Under the pieces are notes generated by a model. That model made no database searches. It had not been told where the DNA came from and worked only from the letters and a program-made list of their open reading frames with translations. 64,000 bases of DNA from Gammaproteobacteria bacterium (lineage in GTDB: Bacteria; Pseudomonadota; Gammaproteobacteria; UBA4575), in contig JAJDYY010000008.1 in NCBI GenBank assembly GCA_022824965.1, positions 284-64,283 of the forward strand. The letters are read 5' to 3'. A program made the translations under genes and the position numbers. The first letter of the stretch is position 1. Each line of letters begins with the position of its first letter. This document shows, piece by piece, positions 1 through 14,144 of the stretch.

Positions 1-180
1 ATGTTATCAGGAGTAAAAATCGCGCGGACCGGTCAGGCTGTCTGCCGGCCTATCCCAACGCGAGTGGATTCGCCCCATTTTACTTCTATGGATTCAGGGG
101 GTTATCATTGGATCGTATGAGGTGCCGGCAGGCTGCGATGGAAGCCCTGCTGGAAAAGCAATTCTGCTTTACAAATTAAA

Positions 181-204
181 TCCCGATAGTTATAGCTATC
201 GGGA
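181..204. other. Stem-loop (9 bp stem tcccgatag/ctatcggga, 6 nt loop) in low-GC non-coding region
   Basis: Inverted repeat read directly: positions 181-189 pair with 196-204. Read on the minus strand it is followed by a T-rich stretch (atttaatttgtaaa). Confidence 0.35.
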
Positions 205-605
205 GTAAAACCTTCTCTCCAGCAAGCCCCGAACAGGCTTAGAACTGCCTGTTTTGCCTACTGTTATGACTGCAAACCGCGAAGAATGTTCCCGCAGATG
301 GCAGACCTTATTCCCACACAGCGCAGAGCCGTGGGCATGAGCCAGTCTCTTGATACGTTTGCGCTTAAATTACAAGCTATCCTCACACAAGGTATCACCC
401 TGAAGAATCCCTCAACTGATGGAGGGCATGTGCATGAGGACGCGTTGCATCACCCCTGTCTCGTTGTCCAGAACGACGTTGAACATGAATTCACTGGAGC
501 CGCAAGGACCTGTTGGGAAACAAACTGGGAAAGATCACGACGCACTACTCGGAGGGCGACCGAAGACCACATATGGGGAAACCGTTTGGTTCAAAAAAGA
601 ATCGG

Positions 606-682
606 TGGCGCGCCCGGAGAGATTCGAACTCCCGACCACCTGGTTCGAAGCCAGGTACTCTATCCAGCTGAGCTACGGGCGC
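606..682 (-). tRNA. tRNA-Arg, anticodon TCG (77 nt)
   Basis: Reverse complement reads GCGCCCGTAGCTCAGCTGGATAGAGTACCTGGCTTCGAACCAGGTGGTCGGGAGTTCGAATCTCTCCGGGCGCGCCA. Canonical cloverleaf; anticodon loop CTTCGAA gives anticodon TCG; 3' CCA encoded. Confidence 0.85.
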
Positions 683-736
683 ATGATCAATCGATTGGGG
701 ATTGAACGAGGATTCGAATTAGAACACTATTCACCG

Positions 737-1213
737 ATGGTTGCCACGCATGAACACTACCCAATGCTGCTGGCCTTCCTGCAGCTATTCTACCCTGCCC
801 TGTATGAACGGCTCGGCCCTTACTCGGAGAAGGCCGATATCGTCGGGGCCAACCTCATCAGCTCCAACAACACCAGTGCCTATCAGGCGGTCGTGTTCAG
901 TGAAGGCGTCATGAAGGACGGTGAGTCCTTTGAAATCTACGCGGGAAACGCTGCACTGACCATATACTCCTGGGACTGGCGCTGGGTGTTTGCCGTCAAG
1001 ATCCTGTTCCGCGGGGATACCATCTTTCCATTGAGATTCCAGCAAAAGGTCATTGCCCTGCCTACGGGAAAACGCCCGCTCACCGAGATCTTTTTCAAGA
1101 TCATCCAGCGCGAGTTCGAGGTGGTGCTTGAGAACATCCTGAAAACCTCCGTAGATGAACACACCTCCCTGCGGGAAAGCTATTCCCGGTACCTGGTGTC
1201 CGTGCACCTCTAG
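737..1213 (+). CDS. Hypothetical protein (~158 aa)
   Basis: ORF with strong GC3 bias (about 75% G/C at third positions) in the + frame. The opposite-strand ORF 785..1384 has a Gly/Arg/His-rich composition typical of antisense ORFs. Start uncertain (ATG 737, or ATG 683 abutting the tRNA). No recognisable family. Confidence 0.5.
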   Translation: MVATHEHYPMLLAFLQLFYPALYERLGPYSEKADIVGANLISSNNTSAYQAVVFSEGVMKDGESFEIYAGNAALTIYSWDWRWVFAVKILFRGDTIFPLRFQQKVIALPTGKRPLTEIFFKIIQREFEVVLENILKTSVDEHTSLRESYSRYLVSVHL

Positions 1214-1797
1214 GCTGCGGGCCGCAATTTCCTCTTCAGGTAGAACGTTAGCCTGAATCCGAGAAGAACGGCCAAGATGGCCGCATAGATGGCAGGCTCT
1301 CTGGTGTCGATCTTGACCATCCACCAGAAATGCAAGACCCCCAGCATGGCCACCACGTAGACCAGGCGATGCAGTTGTATCCATCGGTGCTGCAACACCT
1401 CGACCATCCTGTCGGTCGAAGTCGCTGCCAGCGGCAGCAGCAGGACAAAGGCGGTGAACCCCACGGTGATGAAGGGCCGGTCGATGACGTCCTCGATGAT
1501 CTCGGCGAGGTCAAAAAACTTGTCCAGGGTGACATACAGCGACAGGTGTACGCACACGTAAAAGAAGGTGAACAGGCCCAGCATCCTTCTGTAGCGTGCA
1601 AGCGCGTGCCAGCCCGTCAGTTTTCTGAGCGGCGAGATCGCAAGAGTGATCAGCAAAAACCGCAGTGCCCAGTCACCGGCCCTTCGGGTGACGGCCTCGA
1701 TGGGGTTCGCCCCCAGTGAATCCGTAAAAAACCAGTAGCCGTAGCACACCAGCGGCACCAGGCAAGCGGCAAACACCAGGGGCTTGCCAAGGCGCAT
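1210..1797 (-). CDS. msrQ: Protein-methionine-sulfoxide reductase heme-binding subunit MsrQ (YedZ)
   Basis: Six-TM ferric-reductase-like protein with conserved His. Lies immediately downstream of msrP. Start chosen at MRLGKPLVF (ATG 1797), just after the msrP stop at 1811. Confidence 0.85.
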   Translation of the reverse strand: MRLGKPLVFAACLVPLVCYGYWFFTDSLGANPIEAVTRRAGDWALRFLLITLAISPLRKLTGWHALARYRRMLGLFTFFYVCVHLSLYVTLDKFFDLAEIIEDVIDRPFITVGFTAFVLLLPLAATSTDRMVEVLQHRWIQLHRLVYVVAMLGVLHFWWMVKIDTREPAIYAAILAVLLGFRLTFYLKRKLRPAA

Positions 1798-1810
1798 GAG
1801 AAGGTCCTGC

Positions 1811-2776
1811 TCAGAAATGCTTTTTGAGGTCCATGCCTGCATACAGACCGGCCACCTGCTCCGCATAGCCGTTGAACGGTAGGGTCTTTCTTTTCAGGAT
1901 CTCCCCGATCCTGCGCTCCCTTTTCTGGCTCCAGCGCGGGTGGTTCACCGCAGGATTGACGTTCGAGTAGAAACCGTACTCCCGTGGAGCCGACTGATTC
2001 CAGCTGGTCGCAGGCTCCGATTGTGTGAAGCGTATGCGAACGATCGACTTGATGCTCTTGAAACCGTATTTCCAAGGCACGACCAGGCGCAGCGGCGCAC
2101 CGTTTTGATTCGGCAACTCTTTGCCGTACAGCCCCACGGCCAATATGGTCAGGGGATGCATGGCCTCATCCATTCTCAGGCCTTCACGGTACGGCCAGTC
2201 CAGGACCGAGCGCCTCTGGCCCGGCAGGTTCTTCGGATCGTACAGGGTGAAGAACTGCACGTACTTGGCCTTGGACGTGGGCTCGAAACGTTTCAGCACC
2301 GGTCCCAGTTCAACGCCGACCCACGGGATGACCATCGACCAGGCCTCCACACAGCGCAGGCGGTAGATCCGCTCTTCGAGCCTCGGGGCAGGAATGAAGT
2401 CTTCCAGGTCATAGTCGCCCGGCTTGTCGCATTCGCCTTCCACCCGGATGCTCCACGGTTCGGTAACGAGGCGGTCCGCATTACGCTTCGGGTCGCCTTT
2501 TTTCAGGCCGAGCTCATAGAAGTTGTTGTAGCTCGTGATGTCCTCGAACGAGTTGAGTTCCTCGGCCGTCGAAAATACGCTTTTTTCGACATCCCCGATG
2601 CTGATGGCAGCACCTGCAGGTTGTGGCCACAGGGAGGATGCCGGAAGCATGGAAGCCCCTGCCAGGGCGGCAGTGCCCTGCATGAACTTTCGTCGTGCGA
2701 TGTAAAGCGATTCATCGGTGACCTGGGATTCGCGAACATCGCAAGCCCGGGTGGTTTTCAGCAACATACTCGGCAA
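1811..2776 (-). CDS. msrP: Protein-methionine-sulfoxide reductase catalytic subunit MsrP (YedY), TAT-exported molybdoenzyme
   Basis: Near full-length similarity to E. coli MsrP ([21 protein letters not shown] motifs). Twin-arginine signal [14 protein letters not shown]. Confidence 0.92.
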
Positions 2777-2991
2777 ATCCTTTCAGAGTTTCCGGTCAAC
2801 GGGGTACGAGGGATATCATTCACGCAATCCTTGCTTCTACAGCGGATGCAAGTCGATTGCAAGCCAGCCGGTTTTGCAGTGCAAATACCTGTGCACCGGA
2901 TCCCGGGTACTCCATGCTCTATCAGACAGCGGTGCGGCTACCGGAGTTCAGTCCAAATAATGCTATGATTGGACATGCACAACTATTCGGG

Positions 2992-3312
2992 ATGGTGATG
3001 CAACAACAAAGATCGCCGTTAATCGCTTTTTTACTGGCCGTCTTGCTTGGACCACTGGGGTTCACCTACACGAACCTGATCGGTGGACTGCTTGCGATCA
3101 TCCTTGCCGTGGCCACCCTCTGGACCATCTTTGTTCCGATCGTCATCTGGATACTCTGTGCCCTGTTTGCACCGCTGATCGTGATGTCCTATAACAAGTC
3201 CGTGCGCACCCAGAAAAAGTACGTAGACAGCAAGCACGAGGAAATCATCAAGGCGATCCGCTCGGTGAATCTCCAGGCCGAAAACGAGGCCGACAAAAGC
3301 AAGCCTCTCTGA
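2992..3312 (+). CDS. Small inner-membrane protein, two predicted TM helices and a charged C-terminus
   Basis: ORF 2857..3312. Hydrophobic segments LIAFLLAVLLGPLGF and LLAIILAVATLWTIFVPIVIWILCALFAPLIV. Start ambiguous between ATG 2965, 2992 and 2998. Confidence 0.5.
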   Translation: MVMQQQRSPLIAFLLAVLLGPLGFTYTNLIGGLLAIILAVATLWTIFVPIVIWILCALFAPLIVMSYNKSVRTQKKYVDSKHEEIIKAIRSVNLQAENEADKSKPL

Positions 3313-3438
3313 GTCCCCTTCCTCCTGGCAAGACGTTGCTCCCGGACTGTCCCGTCCAGGATGACGGCGATGTGCTTACATCGTCAAGGGGATACCGGAT
3401 ATCGCCAGTGGCCTGGCTCCCAGGCACACCCAACGCAT

Positions 3439-3927
3439 TCAGTGTCCGTTCAGTTCGCCAGCGGAAATGCCTACCTGCACGATTCGCGCCTGGTCCACAC
3501 CTGCCACCCCGACATACTTGAACGGTGCGCCATCGAGTTCACGTTTTTCCAGGGCCTGGATAACCACGGATTCGCCGCCATGCAAAAGTGCGGCAAAGGG
3601 AGCCGCCTGCGTTCCACTGTTCGGATCGGTCGGAAAACTGAAGGATGTTCCGGGGATATTGGTGAATGCAATCTGGCCGTGCTCGTCACTGATCCAGAAT
3701 TCAGTAATCACCGAATGCTGTGCCACATCGGCCAGTACGGAATTGATGGCCTCCGCACTCATTCCTGCCTTGATGGCAGCATCGATGAAGTGGGCTGTCA
3801 GCTTGGCCTCTGCCACCATGTGCTTTGAGGCAGCGTCCTCTGCTGTCCCGGTGCTCTCGGCCATGAGTCCTCCATGCAGCATGAAGAGTATGCAAATACT
3901 CGAAATCGCCAGTATCTTACGCATCAC
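3439..3927 (-). CDS. Secreted/periplasmic hypothetical protein (162 aa) with N-terminal signal peptide
   Basis: N-terminus MMRKILAISSICILFMLHGGLMA is a typical Sec signal. No recognisable catalytic motif. Confidence 0.55.
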   Translation of the reverse strand: MMRKILAISSICILFMLHGGLMAESTGTAEDAASKHMVAEAKLTAHFIDAAIKAGMSAEAINSVLADVAQHSVITEFWISDEHGQIAFTNIPGTSFSFPTDPNSGTQAAPFAALLHGGESVVIQALEKRELDGAPFKYVGVAGVDQARIVQVGISAGELNGH

Positions 3928-4148
3928 GTATCTCCCAGATTTGCTTTTAAATCACTCCCTGCAGACTTGTCCCTGACAGACCGTATGATTTCGTTTCCAA
4001 ACCCTTCGAGAGGTAACTCTGCAGGCTGGCACAACTCTAGCACAGTCGTGTTTGCTGGCAACCCAATGAACACCTGACATATCACAAATTCTCTACACGC
4101 TGTTACACTTTGATACCGTTGCCCACGCAGACACTATGGTATGATTCT

Positions 4149-4205
4149 CCATAGGTCTCTCGCGTGAGCGGGGATTAGGTCTGGATAGGTCTGGATTAGT
4201 TAGTC
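4149..4205 (+). promoter_or_regulatory. Four phased direct repeats of GGAT(T)AGGTCT (10-11 bp periodicity), 25-80 bp upstream of the Cys-rich peptide gene
   Basis: Read directly: ccATAGGTCTct (4149-4160), GGATTAGGTCT (4172-4182), GGATAGGTCT (4183-4192), GGATTAGttagTC (4193-4205). The 11-mer GATAGGTCTGG (4184-4194) recurs on the minus strand at 9816-9826. Confidence 0.5.
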
Positions 4206-4230
4206 GTCCACTTACAGGAGGAAACTGATT

Positions 4231-4563
4231 ATGACTAAAGCCACACCTTCCAAGTTCGCCCGGGTCCTTTGTCATGCGGCAATTGTGGGCATCCTGTCCA
4301 TGTTGCTGGCGAGTACGGGATTTGCGACCTCAACCGTAGACAGCTGTACGACCGCATACAACAATAACGCCCCCGCAAGACACACTTGCACGCTTTATGA
4401 CGTCTCGGTCACCGGTTCAGGGAATTGCTTCATTCGTGCGACCTGCAACGGTGGAAGTTCTGGTAGTCCCAATACCAGCACCTCCATCGCCGAGAGCAGT
4501 ATGTCCTCCCTGAGAAATTGTAATGGTCGCTTGTCTACTTCCAACCCGTGCCCCGTCAACTGA
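4231..4563 (+). CDS. Small secreted cysteine-rich protein (110 aa precursor; ~78 aa mature with 6 Cys, Ser/Thr/Asn/Gly-rich)
   Basis: Good RBS (caggaggaaactgattATG). N-terminal Sec signal MTKATPSKFARVLCHAAIVGILSMLLASTGFA. Mature part has Cys at 7, 21, 34, 40, 65, 76. GC3 is lower (about 60%) than neighbouring core genes. Convergent with the ABC permease gene, stop-to-stop 6 bp. Confidence 0.65.
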   Translation: MTKATPSKFARVLCHAAIVGILSMLLASTGFATSTVDSCTTAYNNNAPARHTCTLYDVSVTGSGNCFIRATCNGGSSGSPNTSTSIAESSMSSLRNCNGRLSTSNPCPVN

Positions 4564-4568
4564 CCGGG

Positions 4569-5744
4569 CTAGTCTGATCTCAGGGCAGTGACCGGGTCGA
4601 GTTGTGCTGCCCGAACAGCGGGATGAAGCCCGAAGAACACACCGACGCAGCAGGCTACGACAAAGCCCATCAGCGCAGCGGCCAGGTTGACCAGGAACGT
4701 CCAGCCTGTAAACCAGCAGAACAGCCAGGTGCTCACGATGCCGAGCAGGATGCCGAATACACCGCCGAGCAGTGACAAGACAATGGATTCGGTCAGAAAC
4801 TGGCTCTGAATATCGACACGGCGGGCTCCCAGGGCCCGCCGTATCCCGATCTCCTTGCGCCGCTCGTTCACGGAGACCAGCATGATGTTCATTACGCCGA
4901 CCCCGCCGACAATCAGCGATATGCTGCCCACCGCAGCCAGCAACAGAGCGAATGTTTGCATCTGGCGTTCCATCTGTTCAATCAACTTCTGGGCGCTGCC
5001 CACACTGACCTCCAGGTTCGGCATCTTGCGGCGAAAGTAGTTCTTCACTTCCGACGCCACCACCGTGTGATGCACATCCGGCCTCATGCGGGCGGCTACC
5101 ATCCGCACGCCCTGGCGATGAAACATGCGCTGCGCCGTGGTGAGAGGAACCAGAATGGATCGGTTGGCCTCAAAATCCAGTCCAGATCCCGCTACCGGAA
5201 TGTCACGCAGCACGCCCACGATGGTGAAAATGTATCGATTCAGCCTGAGTGATTCACCCACCAGTCGTTCTGCGCCGGCATTTTGCAAAGCCGAGGCGAT
5301 CTCGGCTCCAATCACACAGTAGTAGTGGCGAAAATCCAGGTCCGAGATGGCCCGGCCCTGCTCCATCTGCAGCTTGTTGACTCTGGAAAACGATCCGGTC
5401 ACCCCCAGCGTGCTGGCGTGAGTGATGTTCTTACCGCCATAGATGACCTCGTTGTCGCCTTCGACCCAGGGGGCGACCGCCACGATGGAGGTGATCTCCT
5501 TTGGCAATTCCAGCGCTTCGACCACGGGGATCCGCTCATTTAAACCGACGGGCTTGATGGCGAGATAGTCGGTACCGAGTTCCTTGAACTGTTCCCGGGC
5601 CTGATGCTTGGCGATCGTTCCTACCGAGACCATGGCGATGACCGAGCCGATGCCGATGATGATGCCTAGCAACGCCAGCAGGCTGCGCTGCTTGGTCACG
5701 TACAGGCTGACAACCGCCTCCTTCAGGTTGACTTTCAGGCTCAA
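4569..5744 (-). CDS. ABC transporter permease, MacB/FtsX-type (DevC/LolC-like), 391 aa
   Basis: N-terminal TM helix, large periplasmic domain and C-terminal FtsX-type TM bundle. Overlaps the upstream ATPase gene by 4 nt. Confidence 0.85.
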   Translation of the reverse strand: MSLKVNLKEAVVSLYVTKQRSLLALLGIIIGIGSVIAMVSVGTIAKHQAREQFKELGTDYLAIKPVGLNERIPVVEALELPKEITSIVAVAPWVEGDNEVIYGGKNITHASTLGVTGSFSRVNKLQMEQGRAISDLDFRHYYCVIGAEIASALQNAGAERLVGESLRLNRYIFTIVGVLRDIPVAGSGLDFEANRSILVPLTTAQRMFHRQGVRMVAARMRPDVHHTVVASEVKNYFRRKMPNLEVSVGSAQKLIEQMERQMQTFALLLAAVGSISLIVGGVGVMNIMLVSVNERRKEIGIRRALGARRVDIQSQFLTESIVLSLLGGVFGILLGIVSTWLFCWFTGWTFLVNLAAALMGFVVACCVGVFFGLHPAVRAAQLDPVTALRSD

Positions 5745-6418
5745 CTTGCCCCCTCCTCATGCAGCAGACCGTTCTCGATACGGGTGCGCCGCCCGCACCG
5801 TTGAGCGATCTTTGCATCGTGGGTGATGACGATGAAGGTCGTCCCCTGATCCTGGTTCAGGCGCACGAACAGGTCCATGATGCCGTTGCCGGTATCCTGG
5901 TCAAGGGCACCGGTCGGCTCGTCCGCCAGCACGATGACCGGTCTTCCGACCAGCGCGCGGGCAATCGCAACCCGCTGTTGCTGTCCGCCGCTCATTTCGC
6001 CCGGCTTGTGGTCGAGATGACTCCCCATGCCCACCCGGTCCAGCGCTGCACCGGCCTGGTCTTTGATCTGCGCGTCTTCCATACCGCGGTACACCAGGGG
6101 AATACCCACGTTCTCCAAAGCTGTCAGGCGGGGCAGCAGGTGGAAGGACTGGAACACGAAGCCGATGCTGGCATTACGAATGGCTGAACGCCGGTCGTCC
6201 GACAGGGTCGAGATTTCGCGCTCCTCCAGTACGTACGAGCCGCTGCTGGGTGTATCGAGAAGGCCGATGATGTTCATCAGCGTGGATTTGCCGGACCCCG
6301 ATGCGCCCATGATCGAGACCAGGTCACCCTGATTCACTTCCAAGTCGACGCCGCGCAAGATCTGCACGGGCGTCGGGCCGACAACATAGGTTTTGTTTAT
6401 GTCCGTCAATCGAAGCAT
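5741..6418 (-). CDS. ABC transporter ATP-binding protein (MacB/LolD/DevA-type ATPase)
   Basis: Walker A GASGSGKST, signature LSGGQQQRVAIARAL, Walker B VLADEPTGALD, H-loop ITHD. Confidence 0.93.
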   Translation of the reverse strand: MLRLTDINKTYVVGPTPVQILRGVDLEVNQGDLVSIMGASGSGKSTLMNIIGLLDTPSSGSYVLEEREISTLSDDRRSAIRNASIGFVFQSFHLLPRLTALENVGIPLVYRGMEDAQIKDQAGAALDRVGMGSHLDHKPGEMSGGQQQRVAIARALVGRPVIVLADEPTGALDQDTGNGIMDLFVRLNQDQGTTFIVITHDAKIAQRCGRRTRIENGLLHEEGAS

Positions 6419-6448: not shown

Positions 6449-8275
6449 TCAGGTGCCGGGGACCATCACTTCGTCGCCGGCGCCGATACCGCGCACGATC
6501 TCCGCCTCATTCAATGTCGTCGCACCCACCTCCACCGGTACTTGCTGCATATCGCCCTGTTGTGTGCGAACGTGTAACCAGTATTGCCCGGGTTCGCCGT
6601 GCACCGCGGCTAGCGGCACGAGCAGAGCCGCGGGCTCATCCCGCACCACCACATCCACCTGGACGGACATGCCCAATCGCAGCCGTTGACGCTGTGCATC
6701 CGTGAGCCGGTCGAGCTCCGCTGTCACGTGGAACATGGGTACGCTGTCGGTATCAGCACGTTGCGACTGCGACGAGACCCACGTGATTTTTCCGTGCAGC
6801 TCGAGATCGGGAAAGGCATCGCCTCGTGCGGTGACCGGCTGTCCCGGTTGCAGCTTCACAATATCCACCTCGTCGACCAGACCGGCTACCGACAGACCGT
6901 CGATATCCCCGACGCTCAGCAGGTAATCCCCTTCGCTCACCGATTGCCCCGTTGCCAGCAGCTCGGCACTGCTTCCTTCCTGGTCGTCATTTCCGTTGCC
7001 GATTTCGGGTTGCAGAACGATCCCGAATACCGGCGCATGAACCACGGAGTCTGCCAGCGTCTTCTTCAGTTCCTGAATGCGCGAGGTTGCATTTTCCAGC
7101 TTGAGCCGGGCGACCTGCATCGTGTCCGTACCGGCCTTGGCCTGCACCGACTCCAGGTCCTGCAACGCCGCCTCGTAGTTCAGCCGTTGAGCTCCGTACT
7201 GACGTTTGGCGGCATCATGTTCCTGAGCGGAAATTATCCCCTGCTCAAGCAGCAGGGAGGTTTCTGACAGTTTGTCCTTGCGCACGTCTAGCTCCAGCTT
7301 GGCGCTTGCCACCGCACGCCGGACGCGACTCACCTCCAGGCTGTTTTCCCAGTCCTCGAGTTCCCTGACCCGCTCGCGTGCCTCAAGGAACTTGGCCTGC
7401 GCCTCCCGGTACTCGCGTTCGACTCCGGCAGTGTCCAGTTCAACCAGCGCCTGACCCGCCGCGACCTGCCCGCCGTACTCGAAAAGCCGCCGGGCCACCT
7501 TGCCGGTGGTCGGGCTGGTGATCCGTACTTCCTGGCGCGGTGCGAGCCTTCCGATAAAGGAAAGCGTTACGGTAAGCTTGCGGGGCGCGACGGTCAGGGT
7601 GGTCACCGTTTCTGCCATGCCCGAGTGCGTACCGGGCGTTACCGCAATTTCTTCTGTGAGTGCGGATCCCGTCTCATTCCAGACATACCCGGCAGCGCCC
7701 AGAAAAAGGAGGATGACGAAGGTACTGGCAACCAGCCGTACCGTCTGCACCTTCTTCAGGGCCGAATCCAGGGCCTCGTTCTTCTCCTCGATCTCGCGAT
7801 AGGCCTCGCGCAGCCTGGCATTCTGCTCTTTGGTCGACTCCACCAGCTGCTGTTCCGCCTTGCGCAGTGCCGCCACTTCAGTGATGTCGCGGAACACGGC
7901 GACGATGCCGATTTTCCGGGGCTCCCCGTCCTTGTAGTCGGCCAGGTACGATGTCGTCACGGCGAGAGACCGTTCCGTGCCGTCTTCAAGCTGCACCCCA
8001 ATCGTCGACTGGGAGCCGACAGCATCATCGTAGACGGCCGCCAGTACGGTGTCGTTGAAGTCTTCCAGACCCTTGATATTCAGAAAAACCTCGGCAAACA
8101 ACTTGCCCCGGATTTCAGCACGGGCCAGCCCCAGCAGCTTCGCGGCCGCAGGATTGAAGATGCCGATACGGGCGTCGGAGTCGACGGTCATGACTCCTTC
8201 ACTCATGCTGTCGAGCACGTTAAGGCGGAGCAGGGAATCCCGGTCCACGGAAGGAGAAGGAGAGGCACCGGTCAT
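6449..8275 (-). CDS. HlyD-family membrane fusion protein (periplasmic adaptor) with an N-terminal cytoplasmic PAS domain, 608 aa
   Basis: Residues ~15-135 have PAS hallmarks (GVMTVDSDARIGIFNPAAAKLLGLARAEIRGK ... IVAVFRDITEVAALRKAEQQL). These are followed by a coiled-coil, one TM helix (LVASTFVILLFLGAAGYVW), then a long HlyD-type domain with barrel-sandwich and beta-barrel regions. The stop overlaps the TolC-like gene start region by 4 nt. Confidence 0.8.
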   Translation of the reverse strand: MTGASPSPSVDRDSLLRLNVLDSMSEGVMTVDSDARIGIFNPAAAKLLGLARAEIRGKLFAEVFLNIKGLEDFNDTVLAAVYDDAVGSQSTIGVQLEDGTERSLAVTTSYLADYKDGEPRKIGIVAVFRDITEVAALRKAEQQLVESTKEQNARLREAYREIEEKNEALDSALKKVQTVRLVASTFVILLFLGAAGYVWNETGSALTEEIAVTPGTHSGMAETVTTLTVAPRKLTVTLSFIGRLAPRQEVRITSPTTGKVARRLFEYGGQVAAGQALVELDTAGVEREYREAQAKFLEARERVRELEDWENSLEVSRVRRAVASAKLELDVRKDKLSETSLLLEQGIISAQEHDAAKRQYGAQRLNYEAALQDLESVQAKAGTDTMQVARLKLENATSRIQELKKTLADSVVHAPVFGIVLQPEIGNGNDDQEGSSAELLATGQSVSEGDYLLSVGDIDGLSVAGLVDEVDIVKLQPGQPVTARGDAFPDLELHGKITWVSSQSQRADTDSVPMFHVTAELDRLTDAQRQRLRLGMSVQVDVVVRDEPAALLVPLAAVHGEPGQYWLHVRTQQGDMQQVPVEVGATTLNEAEIVRGIGAGDEVMVPGT

Positions 8276-9858
8276 CGTTCGCCCCCCCTGACATCATGCG
8301 GCAGGTCGATCCCGATATTCCAGGTATTCAGCGTTGTCCCCTGTATCCGGTCCAGTGCGGTCAGCGCATTAAGGTACGCGACGACCGCGTCGTTTTCATT
8401 GTTCTGGCTTCTGACCAGGTCATCCTCAAACTCAACCAGCCGGAAGTTTGTGGTCAGGCCTGCGCTCAGTCTTATCTGCTCGATCTCGAGCTTTCGCTCG
8501 GCAAGTGCCCTCGCCTGTCGGGCCAGTTCGACGCGCCGATACCGGACCCCGACATCACGCACTGCGGCCCGAACCTCGATATCGATCGACTGGCGAAGCT
8601 CCGCCAGGCGAATCCGCGACTTCTGCAAGGAGAACCTTGCCCTGCGCTGGTCGCGCCGCAAGCTGTCCGCGTTCACTCCCAAAGGGATGTTCAAGCTGAG
8701 CCCGACGCGGTAATCGTCATTAAACCGGCTGTAAGCATCCGACAGCGAACGGCCACTGTTCATCAGGTTTGCCGAGGAGGTGAGGTTCAGCTCCCACCAA
8801 CGCGCATTGTCGGCAACCAGCAGGGCAGTATCCGCGTTTTCGATGATTAACCGCGACTGCAGGTAGTCCGGGCGGTGTTCAAGCGCCAACTCCACCGCGT
8901 GGTCCGCGTTGTGCGTTGCCGGGTCGACGTGCAGCGTCTCCGTTGGCTGGATCAGAGTCTGGCTGTCGATCTCCAGGATATCGATCAGGGCAAGGCGGGC
9001 ATCGTCCAGCGCATCGTAGGCTTCCGTCAGGCTCAACTCCCGTTCTGCGATATTCGCCTCGGTCTGCAAGATATCGTGCTTGGCCATCCTGCCGGTATCG
9101 ATCAGGACCCGGTTCACTTCCAGCTGGTCTCGGGCCCGTTGCAGCGAGCGTTCGCTGATCTCCACCGCACGCATGGACCGGATCACGTGGCGGTACGCAT
9201 AGATGGTCTGGGTCACGATCCCGATGACCGCCGACTTGAAGCCGAGGACGCCGATCTGTTCCTCGCGCCGGGCGGTCACGAGGTCGGCGGTACCGACCGC
9301 GGTGCCGCCACCCTTCAGCAACGGCTGGGCGAACTCCAGCGTAACGAACTGATCTGCACTGTCCTGGTTGGTCACCCGGTTGTTTGCACTCAGGCTCAGT
9401 GTCCCTCCGGTGGGGATCCGCAGGGTAATTTTGGGCGAGATACCCAGCGAGACTTCATCCCAGTCGAGCGGGGAATCGGTCGAGTCGTTGTCAAAGGACA
9501 TCTCGAGCGATGGCGTGAGCCTGAACTCGTCTTCGGAGTCCTGCAGGAAAAGTTTCTGCGAGAGCCGGTCGAGGCGACCCGTGGCAAGGTCCCGGTTGTT
9601 CTGAACGGCCAGCAGGATGGATTCGGCCAGGGTCAGGTCCCGTTTCAGCGAGGTGCCTGGAGCCCGCTCTGCAGCGACGGGTAAGCCCGCCAGAAATGCC
9701 GTCAGGACGAGGAAGATGCACAGTTTCCATGTGATGAGACGACCCGCTCCCGACCAGCCATACGCCCCTCGCTTTCTCGTGCGACGAGGCCCGTGGTTGA
9801 TCGCTGCGGAGAGAACCAGACCTATCAGCTTTGGGATGACAGCTCTGCGCACGTTCAA
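8272..9858 (-). CDS. TolC-like outer membrane efflux protein (OEP family)
   Basis: Two repeats of the TolC-type helical/beta organisation. Signal-peptide-like segment KLCIFLVLTAFLAGLPVAA. The annotated start is TTG at 9858, giving a ~45 aa extension before the signal peptide, so the true start is uncertain. Confidence 0.8.
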   Translation of the reverse strand: MNVRRAVIPKLIGLVLSAAINHGPRRTRKRGAYGWSGAGRLITWKLCIFLVLTAFLAGLPVAAERAPGTSLKRDLTLAESILLAVQNNRDLATGRLDRLSQKLFLQDSEDEFRLTPSLEMSFDNDSTDSPLDWDEVSLGISPKITLRIPTGGTLSLSANNRVTNQDSADQFVTLEFAQPLLKGGGTAVGTADLVTARREEQIGVLGFKSAVIGIVTQTIYAYRHVIRSMRAVEISERSLQRARDQLEVNRVLIDTGRMAKHDILQTEANIAERELSLTEAYDALDDARLALIDILEIDSQTLIQPTETLHVDPATHNADHAVELALEHRPDYLQSRLIIENADTALLVADNARWWELNLTSSANLMNSGRSLSDAYSRFNDDYRVGLSLNIPLGVNADSLRRDQRRARFSLQKSRIRLAELRQSIDIEVRAAVRDVGVRYRRVELARQARALAERKLEIEQIRLSAGLTTNFRLVEFEDDLVRSQNNENDAVVAYLNALTALDRIQGTTLNTWNIGIDLPHDVRGGER

Positions 9859-10123
9859 TGAGTTACAAGATATTTATAAGAACTATCTGCTGCAGTACCT
9901 CTGATTCATCTTCTGACCAGGCGTAATGCCCGTGAGACCCATGGATGGACTGTGTGAATTGCTGATAGTACCCCAATTCAGGGCATGGAGTCCTGTGTAC
10001 GATCAGGAGGAGAAAACCGGGGTTGGAGTCATAAATATGAACCAAGAGCCGCCCTACCGGATACGCCATGTCCTGTCACCCGATGAGTACGGGGGATTTA
10101 TAGACCGCAGGACCCGCAACAGG

Positions 10124-12127
10124 CTACAGCGCCAGATTGATCCCCACATAGGCCTGGAGTGGCATGGCCGGAAAGTAGCGGTCGGTGCCGAAGGCATAGT
10201 CGGCGCGATCGGCGTAGCGCTCATCGAACAGATTGATGACCCGGGCAAACAGGTCGATATGCTCGGTCAGCCTGTAGCCGCCCCGCCAGTTGAGCACGAC
10301 GTGACCCTCGTACTTGGCCGTGTTGGCAGCGTTGGTGTAGTACTCACCCACCCTGTTCAGTTCAAACTCGGAATACCAGCGCTCACCTGGCTCGTAGCGC
10401 CAGCGGGCATGGGTGAGCCAGCGCGGTGCCGAATCCATCAGGTTGCCTTTTTCGATCCGCTCGCCGCGCCCGGCATCACGGGTGAAATCGTACTTGTGTA
10501 CGGCATAGCCGATGGCAAGGCCCAGGGCATGGTCGCCCAGATGCCAGTCGCCGGAAAACTCGAGCCCGGTGGAACGGGTCTTGCCGTCGCTGACGTTGAA
10601 ACCACTGGCGTCACGGAAAATGAAGTCGCGGGTCCACTGGCCGAATGCCGACACCGACCAGGCGCCGCTTCGAAAGCCAGCCTCCACCGACACCAGGCGT
10701 TCGCTGTCCAGGTCCGCCACGGTTTGCCCCTGCTGCAGGCGGTAGAGTTCGGTGGCTTGCGGCGGTCTAAATCCGCTGCTGAGCATCACATAGCTGGAGC
10801 GGTGAGCACCAAAATCGCGCTCAACCCCTAAGCGCCCGGCCACTTCAGTGAACCGGTCTTCCCGGGAGGCCGGACGGGTGTACAGGCAGCCGCCGAAGCC
10901 GCAGGGCGTGCCGTCGTCGCGGCTGTTGCCCGTCAGGTGGCGGTTTTCATAATCGTAGCGCAGGTGCTCAAGGCGCAGGCTGTGCAACAGGCGCAGCTCC
11001 CCGCCCAAGGCTCGGCTCAGATCGTAAAAGCCTGCAGCCATGACCGAATCGACGTCGTAGTCGTAGTGGCGCCCGGCAGGGCGAGTGGCCACTAGGAAGG
11101 CCGACCCGCTCGTCGGTCGATCCTGAATCTCGAGCAGACTGCCCTGCATCGCCTCAGCTTGCGCACCGAATTGTCCGGCCCAGGCCCCGGCTTCAAACTC
11201 CTGGCGGACCAGCATGCCTCCGCTGGTCTGCTCATTGGTCTCGGTCGGCTGTCCAGGCAGGAAGTGCTGCAGAAACTCCATGTGCGAGCGGCGCAGGTAA
11301 GCAGAAACTTGAGTTGGCCCGCGCTGCCAGTGGCTGGCTGCGCGCAAGGACCACGCGTCCCGATAGGCCTCCGGGTAGGGGTTGGAGCGGCGCAGTTCAC
11401 GGTCCTTGTAGGCTTCAAAGCCCTGCACGTAGCCGCCGGTCTCCTGGTTGAGGTGGGTGGCGCTCAGGGTATTGCGTACCCGCCAGGCGCCGAGGTCGGT
11501 AGCATGGACCAGGGAGAACTTCTGCTGGTCATACCCCGTGGCATCCCGGTAACCGTCGGTCTGGCTTGCGTAGGCACTCAGGCCGACGTAGTGCCTGCCA
11601 GCGTGCCCGCCGGATGTGACTCGGACCTGGTGGTAGCCGTAGGAGCCGCTCTCCAGGCTCAGGCCGGCACCTTCAGGATTGGCCGTGAGCACATTGATCG
11701 CCCCGTGCATTGCATTGCCGCCCAGCACGGCACTTGAGGGTCCACGCCAGACCTCGATGCCCCCTGCCTGCTCGCCATTGACCTCGAAGAGGTTGTTGAT
11801 GTTGCAAAACCCCGCGGGGCGAATGGGCACACCGTCCTCAAGGTACAGAAATTTTCCACAGGCTCCGGGTCCGGTAAAGACCGCCGAGCGGATGGCGGTC
11901 AGATGCTCCTGGCCGGACCCCCGGGTCACCCAGACGCTTGGCGCCCGGCTCAGGGCTTCGTGAATATGGTTGTAACGGATCTCCGCCAGTACATCCCCAT
12001 CGATGCGGCTGGCACTGCCTGCAGTGCCGAGGCGCTCGCCGATGGTTCCTGTGACCACGATCTCCCCAATGGGATCCGCGGCGGATAGACTCGCCGGGAT
12101 CACCGCCAGCAGCAACAACCCCGCCAA
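10124..12127 (-). CDS. TonB-dependent outer membrane receptor
   Basis: N-terminal signal, TonB-box-like EIVVTGT, plug-domain motifs (IRYNHIHEALSRAPSVWV, LYLEDGVPIRPAGFCN), and a long beta-barrel region. Start is TTG at 12127. The C-terminus ends ...AYVGINLAL rather than with the usual terminal aromatic residue. Confidence 0.8.
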   Translation of the reverse strand: MAGLLLLAVIPASLSAADPIGEIVVTGTIGERLGTAGSASRIDGDVLAEIRYNHIHEALSRAPSVWVTRGSGQEHLTAIRSAVFTGPGACGKFLYLEDGVPIRPAGFCNINNLFEVNGEQAGGIEVWRGPSSAVLGGNAMHGAINVLTANPEGAGLSLESGSYGYHQVRVTSGGHAGRHYVGLSAYASQTDGYRDATGYDQQKFSLVHATDLGAWRVRNTLSATHLNQETGGYVQGFEAYKDRELRRSNPYPEAYRDAWSLRAASHWQRGPTQVSAYLRRSHMEFLQHFLPGQPTETNEQTSGGMLVRQEFEAGAWAGQFGAQAEAMQGSLLEIQDRPTSGSAFLVATRPAGRHYDYDVDSVMAAGFYDLSRALGGELRLLHSLRLEHLRYDYENRHLTGNSRDDGTPCGFGGCLYTRPASREDRFTEVAGRLGVERDFGAHRSSYVMLSSGFRPPQATELYRLQQGQTVADLDSERLVSVEAGFRSGAWSVSAFGQWTRDFIFRDASGFNVSDGKTRSTGLEFSGDWHLGDHALGLAIGYAVHKYDFTRDAGRGERIEKGNLMDSAPRWLTHARWRYEPGERWYSEFELNRVGEYYTNAANTAKYEGHVVLNWRGGYRLTEHIDLFARVINLFDERYADRADYAFGTDRYFPAMPLQAYVGINLAL

Positions 12128-12250
12128 CCTCCGTGGCTCGCCCTGGAGGCAACGGCTTATCGCCAGAAAAAGGGAAACCAGAATCAGTTGGACAATCCGC
12201 CTTCCGTAGGACAGTCGCTCACTCGCAGTGGCGACAAGTCAGTGAAAAAA

Positions 12251-12327
12251 TGGCGCGCCCGGAGAGATTCGAACTCCCGACCGCCTGGTTCGTAGCCAGG
12301 TACTCTATCCAACTGAGCTACGGGCGC
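12251..12327 (-). tRNA. tRNA-Arg, anticodon ACG (77 nt)
   Basis: Reverse complement reads GCGCCCGTAGCTCAGTTGGATAGAGTACCTGGCTACGAACCAGGCGGTCGGGAGTTCGAATCTCTCCGGGCGCGCCA. Differs from the 606-682 copy at 3 positions, including anticodon position 34. Confidence 0.9.
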
Positions 12328-12486
12328 GTACAGCATCAAATAGCAGCGCAGTATAACTTATTCCATGATCAAATTACTTCGTACGAAAAAGCCAGTTCCT
12401 AATCATGAAAACGGGGAATACAGCCGATGGGTTGATACAAGTTACACCGATTAGCAGGTATTCTATATACTCTGCTTGTTCTGTGC

Positions 12487-12579
12487 GGAGAGGTGCCAGA
12501 GTGGTCGAATGGGGCTCCCTGCTAAGGAGTTGTCTGAGTAATCCTTGGACCGTGGGTTCGAATCCCACTCTCTCCGCCA
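12487..12579 (+). tRNA. tRNA-Ser, anticodon GCT (93 nt, long variable arm)
   Basis: GGAGAGGTGCCAGAGTGGTCGAATGG...CTGCTAA anticodon loop...long variable arm...GGTTCGAATCC...CTCTCCGCCA. Confidence 0.9.
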
Positions 12580-12725
12580 ACAAGCCAATTTAGGCGATCA
12601 AATTCACCGAAAGCCGAACACTACTTGCAATCGAGAACCCGCCGGATGCGAAACGTATCTGCCCGCATGGCACCCGCCATGACGGCGAGCGCACCCGGGG
12701 AAGGAAATCCTGCTTCAGCAGGCAG

Positions 12726-14144
12726 TCACTCGTCTCTTTCCGGCATGACGACGAATTCAGGGTAGGCCTCGATGCCAAGTTCGGCGACATCCTGACCCAG
12801 GTCTTCCACCGCGGGGGACACACGTGCGCCGATCGTCTTGTCGATCACCAGCCAGGTGATCAGGGATACCGTGAACACGAAGGCTCCGACTGCCACGATG
12901 CCCGTCACTTGCACCAGCAGGTTGCCTCCTGCGGCAATGCACACCGCGAGCGTTCCCCAGATGCCTGCGAACAGGTGCGCCGGAACGGCACCGACCACAT
13001 CGTCGATCTTCAGGCTCTCCATGACCTTCAGCCCAAATACGATCACCAGGCCGCCCACCGCACCGATAAACACGGCCCAGTGGTGATGGACGATGTCGGG
13101 TCCTGCCGTGATGGCCACGAGCCCGCCGATGGCGCCGTTGAGTGCGGCGAGAAGATCCACCCGCCCGAGTATCGGCCGGGACAGCGCAATCGCCGTCATG
13201 ACACCCGCGGCAGCAGCGAGATTGGTGTTCGCCAGGATGTTGCTGAGCGCTATGGCATCGACGGCACCGCCCAGGGCCAGTTGCGATCCGCCGTTAAAAC
13301 CGAACCAGCCGAGCCAGAGGATAAAAACCCCGAGAGTGACGACCGGCACATTCGATGGAGGAGTCACCTTGACACTGCCATCGGCACGAAATTTCCCTGT
13401 GCGGGCACCCACGACCAGTGCCCCAGCCAGCGCCGCCCAGCCGCCGGTCGAGTGCACGATCGTCGAACCCGCAAAATCCTGAAAGCCCATTTCGGAAAGC
13501 CAGCCTCCGCCCCAGGTCCAGGAACCGATGATCGGATACAGGACCGCGGTCAGGATCAGGATGAACAGGAAAAACGACCACAGTTTCACACGCTCGGCCA
13601 GTGTCCCGGATACGATCGAGGCCGTGGTCGCCACGAACACCATCTGGAAGAACCAGTCCGACATGGTGGAGTAACCGTTGCTGATGACCGCAGGGGCCAC
13701 CGCTTCATCACCGCCCAGCAGTGCGATCTCATCCCCGGTCGTGCCGTACATAAACTGGAGCGAGCCGGACCAGCCGCCGGGTTCGACTCCGACATACATG
13801 AGGTTGTAGCCGACGAAGAAGAAGGCCAGGCCGGCAATGGAATAAAGCCCGATGTTCTTCAGGCAGATCACCGAGGCATTCTTGGTACGCACCGAGCCCG
13901 ACTCGAGCATCGTGAAGCCCGCGCACATCCACATCACCAGTGCACCCCAGATCAAAAACGAGAAGCTGTTCAGTACGAATTGCTGTTCCTCGCCAAGGGC
14001 TGCGTAAGCGCTGGATGAGCACAGGATCAGCAACAGGGCCAGGACTGCAAGGACGGGCTTGCGCGTAAACCCCTTGCTCCCGCTAGCAATGATCCGACAG
14101 GACGGGACTGGGGTCTGCTTGGCAATCTTGGGAAGTGCGTACAT
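12726..14144 (-). CDS. amt: Ammonium transporter (Amt family)
   Basis: 11-TM Amt/MEP signature throughout (e.g. GGWLSEMGFQDFAGSTIVH, LGWFGFNGGS). Start chosen at MYALPK, giving a signal peptide. The long ORF extends to 14264. Confidence 0.88.
   Translation of the reverse strand: MYALPKIAKQTPVPSCRIIASGSKGFTRKPVLAVLALLLILCSSSAYAALGEEQQFVLNSFSFLIWGALVMWMCAGFTMLESGSVRTKNASVICLKNIGLYSIAGLAFFFVGYNLMYVGVEPGGWSGSLQFMYGTTGDEIALLGGDEAVAPAVISNGYSTMSDWFFQMVFVATTASIVSGTLAERVKLWSFFLFILILTAVLYPIIGSWTWGGGWLSEMGFQDFAGSTIVHSTGGWAALAGALVVGARTGKFRADGSVKVTPPSNVPVVTLGVFILWLGWFGFNGGSQLALGGAVDAIALSNILANTNLAAAAGVMTAIALSRPILGRVDLLAALNGAIGGLVAITAGPDIVHHHWAVFIGAVGGLVIVFGLKVMESLKIDDVVGAVPAHLFAGIWGTLAVCIAAGGNLLVQVTGIVAVGAFVFTVSLITWLVIDKTIGARVSPAVEDLGQDVAELGIEAYPEFVVMPERDE

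Follow-up and report, generated by a model that had tools for sequence, protein, structure and literature searches.

What does a PAS domain do at the cytoplasmic end of a periplasmic adaptor? The question is raised by an open reading frame (ORF) at 6449..8275 (minus strand, stop codon included) in a 64,000-nucleotide stretch of contig JAJDYY010000008.1 (assembly GCA_022824965.1, Gammaproteobacteria, UBA4575), hereafter called the window. The ORF contains neither a stop nor a frame break and encodes a 608-aa protein. According to Pfam and NCBIfam profiles, homologues, AlphaFold2 (AF2) models and Foldseek searches, this protein consists of a PAS domain, a coiled coil, a transmembrane (TM) segment and a MacA-like periplasmic adaptor. 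A sequence-only reading of the same DNA had described a genuine fusion in one continuous frame and had proposed that the PAS domain gates a tripartite pump in response to a cytoplasmic signal such as redox, oxygen or a ligand, and had seen a redox link as fitting the neighbourhood. Our analysis supports this proposal in part: the evidence favours a sensor-regulated adaptor, but not the redox link. On balance, we lean towards the view that the adaptor of a MacB-type tripartite exporter doubles here as a one-component transmembrane signal transducer.

The adaptor gene is the second of four genes on the minus strand. It follows a gene for a TolC-like outer-membrane efflux protein (OEP; 8272..9858; Pfam OEP PF02321, 93.5 bits in two stretches) and precedes those for an ATP-binding cassette (ABC) ATPase subunit with a MacB/LolD-type nucleotide-binding domain (5741..6418, 225 aa; ABC_tran 116 bits, LolD/YbbA/MacB nucleotide-binding domain models 229-248 bits) and a MacB-type (type VII ABC) permease (4569..5744, 391 aa; MacB_PCD 124.8 bits, FtsX 72.6 bits). 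The permease also scored 178 bits against the MacB model NF007826, covering the permease half of that model. The OEP stop codon overlaps the adaptor start as ATGA (4 nt), behind a G-rich Shine-Dalgarno sequence, the gap between adaptor and ATPase genes is 30 nt, and the ATPase and permease genes share 4 nt. The four genes are a tightly coupled operon for a MacB-type tripartite pump, with ATPase and permease as split subunits, and thus provide the adaptor with both an inner-membrane transporter and an outer-membrane factor.

Residues 12-131 (7883..8242, minus strand) form the cytoplasmic PAS domain. Four profiles exceeded their curated thresholds: Pfam PAS PF00989 (39.5 bits, cutoff 22.6, residues 19-131), PAS_4 PF08448 (37.3 bits, cutoff 23.1), PAS_9 PF13426 (27.8 bits, cutoff 27) and NCBIfam TIGR00229 sensory_box (36.5 bits, cutoff 22.9). 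An AF2 model of residues 1-201 (predicted local distance difference test, pLDDT, 87.3; about 90 in the PAS domain) displayed a canonical PAS fold at 12-130, with strands at 27-32, 36-40, 89-95, 101-115 and 118-130 and helices at 42-81. When the N-terminal part was compared with the PDB, Foldseek returned the PAS domains of LOV, FixL, DosP and WalK proteins (E about 1e-7, TM-score up to 0.72), which at 12-25% identity are generic PAS-fold matches. Across 107 family members, mean column conservation was 0.69 in the PAS domain versus 0.67 in the adaptor body. N41, F73 and D130 are invariant, and R102, the H-beta strand run T107-T108-S109-Y110-L111, G123, V127 and the junction D130-x-T132-E133 are conserved at 85% or more.

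The next-best matches to the PAS domain alone were proteins of about 460 aa (P0111-P0116) that carry a class III adenylate/guanylate cyclase domain (PF00211). The window PAS and that of P0111 are 42% identical over 132 aa (E 4e-25) and have in common R102, F73, N41, the VTTSYL and DFN..L.AVYD motifs and a D-I-(T/S)-E junction (D-I-S-E-L) into a coiled coil. Since both the adaptor and the class III cyclases carry it, one PAS subtype serves two unrelated outputs, and the resemblance raises the possibility that cyclases and pump adaptors may answer to one common signal. The arrangement of PAS domain, signalling helix and output also recalls PAS histidine kinases such as FixL, WalK and YF1-type LOV kinases. 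Unlike in these cyclases and kinases, however, the output here is a TM helix with a structural periplasmic adaptor rather than an enzyme, and to act on it a signal would need to travel out through the membrane.

From the last PAS strand, the protein continues into a cytoplasmic coiled-coil signalling helix (residues 132-180; 7736..7882, minus strand), followed by a single TM segment with the N-terminus inside (residues 181-199, LVASTFVILLFLGAAGYVW; 7679..7735, minus strand). Both AF2 models drew residues 132-208 as one unbroken helix spanning coiled coil and TM segment. Residues 181-199 are the only 19-residue Kyte-Doolittle window above 1.4 (best value 2.04), and in 107 homologues the mean net charge is +3.0 in the 15 residues before and -0.9 in the 15 residues after this segment. 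The N-terminus and the PAS domain are assigned to the cytoplasm because of this positive-inside bias around the sole TM segment. Profiles, AF2, Foldseek and charge bias thus agree with the cytoplasmic PAS fold and coiled coil seen by the sequence-only reading, whose estimate of about 175 residues before the TM segment was accurate (the count is 180).

The heptad pattern of the helix is preserved throughout the family. The hydrophobic fraction is 0.74 at a and 0.71 at d positions, compared with 0.06-0.41 elsewhere, and the most conserved linker residues (L137, E141, Q151, L155, A158, L169 and A183) all lie on a or d. Two of these are polar core residues, E141 at an a position (99%) and Q151 at a d position (91%); conserved polar residues in a coiled-coil core are associated with switchable signalling helices. 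D130 and W199, at the TM end, are 69 residues apart in 118 sequences; another 43 have a spacing of 62 and one has 83, so that 162 of 173 fit 69+7n. The seven-residue deletions are found at two separate sites, which requires at least two deletion events, and the +14 case is a local duplication. The variable periplasmic linker that follows (residues 200-222; 7610..7678, minus strand) behaves differently: between W199 and the invariant P246, its length in the same sequences varies continuously from 39 to 53, and the full-length AF2 model gave pLDDT below 50 at 199-222, with 209-222 disordered. Because the heptad phase is kept while the adjacent linker varies freely, the angular relation of the PAS domain to the TM helix appears to matter. 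A coiled coil that runs on from the last PAS strand and varies in length only in phase-keeping steps in most members is what characterises S-helix-type linkers, and heptad-quantised linker length is likewise a property of PAS-kinase linkers.

Beyond the membrane, residues 223-608 (6452..7609, minus strand) constitute a periplasmic adaptor body with membrane-proximal, lipoyl, alpha-hairpin and beta-barrel domains. The hairpin is long (residues 283-408) and has a conserved tip (L342/G346/S349/E352). TIGR01730 RND_mfp ("efflux RND transporter periplasmic adaptor subunit") scored 125.7 bits (cutoff 94.9), HlyD_3 44.4 (cutoff 22.2) and HlyD_D23 38.2 (cutoff 30); the domain scan that the sequence-only reading had proposed therefore places PAS and HlyD profiles alike above their cutoffs. 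A full-length AF2 model built on an alignment of 59 family members (pLDDT 83.5) reproduced the order of PAS domain, helix and four-domain adaptor, a fold that Foldseek matched to MacA, AcrA and MexA. The best PDB matches of the body were MacA chains of MacAB-TolC (9qgy_G, E 3e-25; 5nik_D, E 7e-23; TM-score 0.67-0.69 normalised to target), and sequence matches to MacA 3fpp/5nik reached E of about 5e-11.

The protein nevertheless falls outside the named adaptor families, with 49.4 bits versus 342 for the MacA equivalog NF008606, 38.5 versus 129 for the DevB family TIGR02971 and 35.8 versus 208.65 for the type I secretion HlyD family TIGR01843; its partner is MacB-type, not HlyB-type. With MacA of Escherichia coli MacAB-TolC (5NIK, 9QGY, 3FPP) it has in common the four-domain fold, the N-terminal membrane anchor, the MacB-type permease, ABC ATPase and TolC-like channel as partners and the hairpin tip L342..G346..S349..E352. 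It differs in not being an orthologue, in having separate ATPase and permease subunits and, above all, in its 180 cytoplasmic residues of PAS domain and coiled coil, whereas MacA "lacks a cytoplasmic domain" according to a 2026 adaptor review (PMC13328181).

How widespread is this architecture? A word-indexed search returned more than 100 clusters of homologues of 575-625 aa with 32-99% identity, all with both PAS and adaptor Pfam matches and drawn from isolates as well as metagenome-assembled genomes (MAGs). These full-length homologues confirm the fusion. An exhaustive HMMER search of 1.84 billion representatives at 50% identity retrieved 526 at E<=1e-30 from several phyla; among the 150 best, the alignment usually begins near residue 10-20 and extends to residue 605. 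The orthologue search suggested earlier thus recovered the same architecture many times over. In databases these proteins appear as "PAS domain S-box protein" in MAGs labelled Gammaproteobacteria, Nitrospinae/Nitrospinota and Alphaproteobacteria, as [quoted passage not shown] and as [quoted passage not shown]. The architecture therefore appears to be present under generic names and uncharacterised.

The operon is conserved along with the adaptor. The order OEP-adaptor-ATPase-permease was kept in genome loci of Gammaproteobacteria, Thermodesulfobacteriota, Binatia and Alphaproteobacteria, in Endothiovibrio and Thioalkalivibrio and, with local rearrangements, in most metagenomic contigs examined. 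A Nitrospinae/Nitrospinota-labelled MAG cluster also has the set of OEP, adaptor, ATPase and MacB permease, which is conserved in at least 12 loci, and the OEP gene lies directly upstream of the adaptor gene in all loci examined. In L011, the ATPase position is taken by a 236-aa call on the opposite strand (8814..9524) with no Pfam match, possibly a miscalled or degraded ATPase gene.

What varies is the sensor. Among the best 150 representatives, 111 have an N-terminal PAS domain, 16 a GAF domain, 2 GAF-PAS, 1 PAS-GAF and 1 GAF-GAF, while 10 have a short conventional N-terminus and 9 are fragments or others. All nine relatives that align only from residue ~131-147 onward carry GAF instead of PAS; GAF-adaptors include P0197, P0203, P0204, P0217, P0233, P0240, P0245, P0256 and P0263. 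The GAF-PAS-adaptors P0212 and P0232 use the same coiled-coil/TM/adaptor chassis, and a GAF-PAS variant in L014 (2546..4831) adjoins an OEP and a MacB-type ATPase and permease. These comparisons indicate that the N-terminal sensor position is modular on one chassis.

The domain order, the topology, the continuous heptad-phased helix, the modular sensor position and the MacB-type partners are the firm ground for a mechanism. The PAS domain is joined through the DxTE junction to a parallel-type coiled coil that runs unbroken through the TM helix to the MacA-like body. In the mechanism we propose, PAS domains would pair via the coiled coil, so that the adaptor hexamer expected here would hold three dimers. 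A small ligand or metabolite bound in the cytoplasm would change the register or rotation of the coiled coil, and the TM helices would relay this movement to the membrane-proximal domains, where the adaptor touches the periplasmic domain of MacB. In this way the signal could control either how the pump assembles with the outer-membrane channel or how it is coupled to the ATPase cycle. Secretion would thus be switched post-translationally from inside the cell. More tentatively, the cargo may be small Sec- or Tat-exported proteins taken up from the periplasm, for which MacAB-TolC export of the enterotoxin STII is a precedent.

Several points weigh against signal transduction by this adaptor. The family is known from sequences and models alone, and a ligand or cofactor cannot be named. 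PAS domains can be purely structural. Part of the heptad quantisation reflects common descent, independent indel events being few (at least three), and 11 of 173 sequences are off-register. Finally, we infer the PAS/coiled-coil dimer and its fit to a 6:2:3 pump.

The main alternative, which we regard as unlikely, is a constitutive scaffold: PAS domain and coiled coil would merely pair protomers or dock on the ATPases, thereby stabilising a 6:2 adaptor:transporter assembly. In its favour, dimerisation is common among PAS domains, cofactor-binding residues cannot be recognised in the window PAS, and a separate ATPase polypeptide leaves room for an additional organiser in the cytoplasm; heptads would also have to be conserved in a coiled coil of purely structural function. 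The interchange of PAS, GAF and GAF-PAS argues in the other direction, since all of these folds are ligand-binding sensors and some 10 close relatives do without any such domain. So does the use of the same PAS subtype to drive cyclases. In addition, R102 and the five-residue H-beta run are conserved beyond the needs of a dimer interface alone, and the polar core residues E141 and Q151 are conserved. For these reasons we continue to favour a signal-transducing adaptor.

A cytoplasmic domain on an adaptor could also act as in HlyD. In HlyBD-TolC, a TM helix with a small domain on its N-terminal, cytoplasmic side senses substrate and influences assembly, which amounts to inside-to-outside signalling through the adaptor (PMC13328181; also a 2021 Chemical Reviews article, PMC8277102, cited here throughout for its searchable 300,000 characters). 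In these two sources HlyD is the only established case of such signalling, and its cytoplasmic part is not called PAS or GAF. PMC8277102 further ascribes importance for substrate recognition to the cytoplasmic parts of ABC-type adaptors, and describes the cytoplasmic domains of adaptors of ABC, major facilitator superfamily and type I secretion systems as structurally almost unknown. By analogy, the window PAS might bind, on the cytoplasmic side, a substrate or a partner loaded with one, and trigger recruitment of the outer-membrane channel, as the HlyD domain does in type I secretion (PMC13328181). We consider this quite improbable. HlyD works with an HlyB-class ABC protein that takes unfolded cytoplasmic cargo, whereas the window transporter is MacB-type (MacB_PCD plus FtsX), a class reported to take periplasmic substrates (PMC8277102), and the adaptor stays far below the TIGR01843 threshold. 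Moreover, the candidate cargo genes have Sec or Tat signals, and a single PAS subtype is kept while the neighbouring small ORFs differ completely between lineages.

Somewhat less probable still is a signal in the opposite direction, with the adaptor reporting the state of the pump or envelope and the PAS domain serving as an output that binds a kinase or regulator. In the two closest genome relatives, L001 (14368..16728) and L002 (15538..17895), a 786-aa GAF-PAS-HisKA-HATPase-receiver-Trans_reg_C protein, that is, a hybrid of GAF-PAS, histidine kinase, receiver and DNA-binding domains, is encoded just downstream of the operon and its Cys-rich ORF, and kinases also occur near L008 and L013. However, no regulator is conserved beside the operon across loci and none is adjacent to it in the window; a counterpart of the 786-aa hybrid was not seen beside the window operon, although the whole window was not searched for one. 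N-terminal PAS and GAF domains are, in general, typically inputs, and the cyclase relatives use this very PAS as an input.

The redox link proposed earlier, with a heme or flavin PAS sensing redox or oxygen in connection with the methionine-sulfoxide repair genes msrPQ, fared worst among the functional readings, and we consider it very improbable. LOV, FixL and DosP PAS domains are indeed among the top Foldseek matches, but these are the generic matches described above. Cys, His and Trp are all absent from the window PAS, and among 107 members no conserved Cys, His or Trp column exists in the PAS core (98, 41 and 93 members, respectively, have none). His is frequent in one column only (64%), position 17, which belongs to the N-cap and not to the core. 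A flavin PAS of the LOV type was discarded since the adduct-forming Cys of the E-alpha helix (GxNCRFLQ) is missing and none of the 107 members' columns supplies a conserved Cys; a heme PAS of the FixL/DosP or c-type was discarded since the core lacks a proximal F-alpha His and a CxxCH motif family-wide.

The neighbourhood offers no better support. The msrPQ genes are at 1210..2776, 1.8-3.4 kb from the downstream end of the operon, but neither msrP nor msrQ was found in L001-L005 by tblastn or in the gene tables of the other loci. Because msrPQ stands beside no other related operon, and because the flanks are not shared with L001 and L002, the argument from neighbourhood fails. The Cys-rich peptide that had been taken as a second redox clue is syntenic only in close relatives and is better read as candidate cargo. 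Of the regulatory proposal, then, the sensory role persists as the best reading, given sensor swapping, the cyclase PAS and the heptad linker, while redox, oxygen, heme and FAD find no counterpart in a PAS lacking Cys, His and Trp. The signal is probably not sensed by a classical flavin or heme redox cofactor; the H-beta cluster of Arg, Thr, Ser and Tyr would, by inference only, suit a small polar or anionic ligand. That the fusion arose artificially, by a frameshift in sequencing or assembly that joined a separate PAS gene and an ordinary adaptor gene, has a negligible probability and was rejected, as more than 100 independent full-length homologues from isolates and MAGs show the same continuous architecture, which makes resequencing of the junction unnecessary, and the junction itself is a single conserved helix with fixed heptad phase.

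What might such a pump export? Convergent with the operon, the plus strand encodes a secreted Cys-rich peptide of 110 aa (4231..4563) with a Sec signal peptide and a mature part of ~78 aa that contains six invariant Cys in a five-sequence alignment. From synteny and alignment we regard it as candidate cargo, with a tentative association. Peptides at the same convergent position are encoded in L001 (13712..14050, 60% identity) and L002 (15338..15511, E 3e-11). More generally, all loci examined carry, next to the operon or within it, one or more small ORFs that lack a Pfam match and encode a Sec- or Tat-type signal peptide, and many of these ORFs are Cys-rich or arranged in tandem arrays. The L002 operon contains two internal Tat-signal paralogues (12111..13292) that are ~48% identical to L010 copies; in L010, eight tandem Tat-signal copies of ~160 aa precede the operon (1..4581; TRRALLAG..., DSATDDGGGKIR motif). 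The L009 operon is flanked by five tandem ORFs of ~150 aa and four repeat proteins with FxNAGTNPRFT repeats (404..4522 and 9964..12726). Cys-rich proteins abut the operons of L005 (410 aa, 24 Cys), L012 (214 aa, 14 Cys) and L011 (157 aa, 11 Cys), those of L005 and L012 being homologous (E 2e-11). L004 has three flanking small ORFs with signal peptides, one of which matches Pfam Calx-beta and the other two of which are its homologues, and single small secreted ORFs are present in L003, L007, L008 and L014.

MacB-type pumps are reported to export the Sec-delivered, disulfide-bonded enterotoxin STII from the periplasm, with cargo sizes up to the ~10-kDa dispersin (PMC8277102). Since such pumps expel STII and other cargo of up to ~10 kDa, it is a reasonable working hypothesis that the pump exports its small Sec- or Tat-delivered neighbours from the periplasm, with the 110-aa peptide as the candidate in the window. 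Small, often Cys-rich, ORFs with Sec or Tat signals flank window-type operons in a way that recalls the MacAB-TolC/STII and Aat/dispersin exporters (PMC8277102); unlike in the window, none of those systems has a sensor domain on its adaptor, and the cargo here is a candidate from ORF families that vary by lineage.

Counting against this assignment, the 110-aa peptide has only three database relatives, a weak hhalign match over a 25-column C-terminal motif (E 6e-5, 64% probability) is what ties it to the L005 protein, and the cargo role is deduced from adjacency only, with small-ORF families that differ between lineages and no background rate. Lineage-varying ORF families are, on the other hand, how cargo genes often behave beside a conserved transporter. 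A jackhmmer search found no connection of the peptide to the Cys-rich proteins of L005 and L012. As a universal partner the peptide was therefore dropped, given its three relatives and the jackhmmer result, and it was kept as a lineage-specific candidate. The motif at the C-terminus of the peptide, SSLRNCNGRLSTSNPCPV, is similar to two motifs of the 24-Cys protein encoded beside the L005 operon.

In the Thioalkalivibrio loci L006/L007, a gene for an Lnt-like acyltransferase (LNT_N plus CN_hydrolase; 11627..13162, minus strand) overlaps the end of the permease gene and is followed by two paralogous secreted ORFs of 135/136 aa and a second OEP gene. The arrangement is reminiscent of AatD, an acyltransferase that belongs to the Aat exporter of dispersin, although the gene may simply be the housekeeping lnt.

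The sequence-only reading had been aware of no comparable regulation of such adaptors. This agrees with the literature searched: PAS or GAF domains are not mentioned in the adaptor review PMC13328181 or in the searchable part of PMC8277102, and a search for PAS or GAF together with adaptor, HlyD or MacB returned no study of a PAS-adaptor fusion. The architecture as such is nonetheless common in databases, and one relative had been noted in 2015, when proteins combining GAF with HlyD/biotin_lipoyl were described in SecA_DEAD/Peptidase_M50 loci, with a suggested regulatory and sensory role and a "function ... unclear" (PMC4452313). Those proteins resemble the window adaptor in placing a cytoplasmic sensor-type domain on an HlyD-family adaptor, and GAF sisters of the window protein exist. 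By their description they differ in carrying GAF rather than PAS and in belonging to a module of secondary SecA and M50 peptidase rather than to a MacB-type pump with an OEP. The 2015 account is a passing remark that contains no analysis of linker, topology or distribution.

If the adaptor does transduce a signal, cells would possess a direct and fast cytoplasmic switch for a trans-envelope exporter, in a field where pump regulation is otherwise mainly transcriptional. It would be the first case in which a ligand directly controls a tripartite pump by way of the adaptor, and it would add to PAS and GAF domains an output class that is non-enzymatic and cross-membrane, namely a structural periplasmic machine instead of an enzyme or DNA-binding domain. 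The family would number several hundred adaptors or more, in which the PAS/GAF sensors are exchangeable and the helix is phase-locked through the membrane, offering a tractable experimental system for conformational signals that travel through an adaptor TM helix to a periplasmic assembly, and a natural ligand-gated secretion module could serve engineering. In its widest form, the proposal describes a large, phylogenetically broad and unstudied class of MacB-type exporters in which a PAS/GAF one-component sensor on the adaptor gates export of small Sec/Tat proteins, here the six-Cys peptide; this we hold to be possible, though short of an even chance. The recurrent small secreted and Cys-rich neighbours could reveal new exported peptides of sulfur-oxidising and other environmental bacteria. 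The size of the family, the coherence of its design and the availability of clear tests make the system worth experimental follow-up.

Within the window, neither a second adaptor copy nor a PAS-cyclase gene was found, and Rfam, promoter and terminator scans around the operon yielded neither a leader RNA nor a convincing signal. Two ORFs between msrP and the Cys-rich gene, at 3439..3927 (minus strand; 162 aa with a signal peptide) and 2857..3312 (plus strand; 151 aa with hydrophobic segments), were dropped as parts of the system, as they have no homologues in related loci and no Pfam match. The flanks of the window operon differ from those of its 68-71% identical relatives L001 and L002. Because these flanks are not shared, the pump operon possibly occupies a variable, island-like region.

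The listed TTG start of the OEP gene gives an N-terminal extension of ~40 residues ahead of a signal-peptide-like segment, LCIFLVLTAFLAGLPVAA. As homologue alignments begin at about residue 35, the real start probably lies ~35-40 codons downstream of the listed TTG. Three tRNA genes, tRNA-Arg(tcg) at 606..682, tRNA-Arg(acg) at 12251..12327 and tRNA-Ser(gct) at 12487..12579, bracket a segment of ~11.5 kb that contains msrQP, small ORFs of no assigned family, the pump operon and a TonB-dependent receptor. The ORFs at 286..705 and 12133..12402 are spurious read-throughs of tRNA genes, and G+C content is lower (0.53-0.57) in the first 5 kb.

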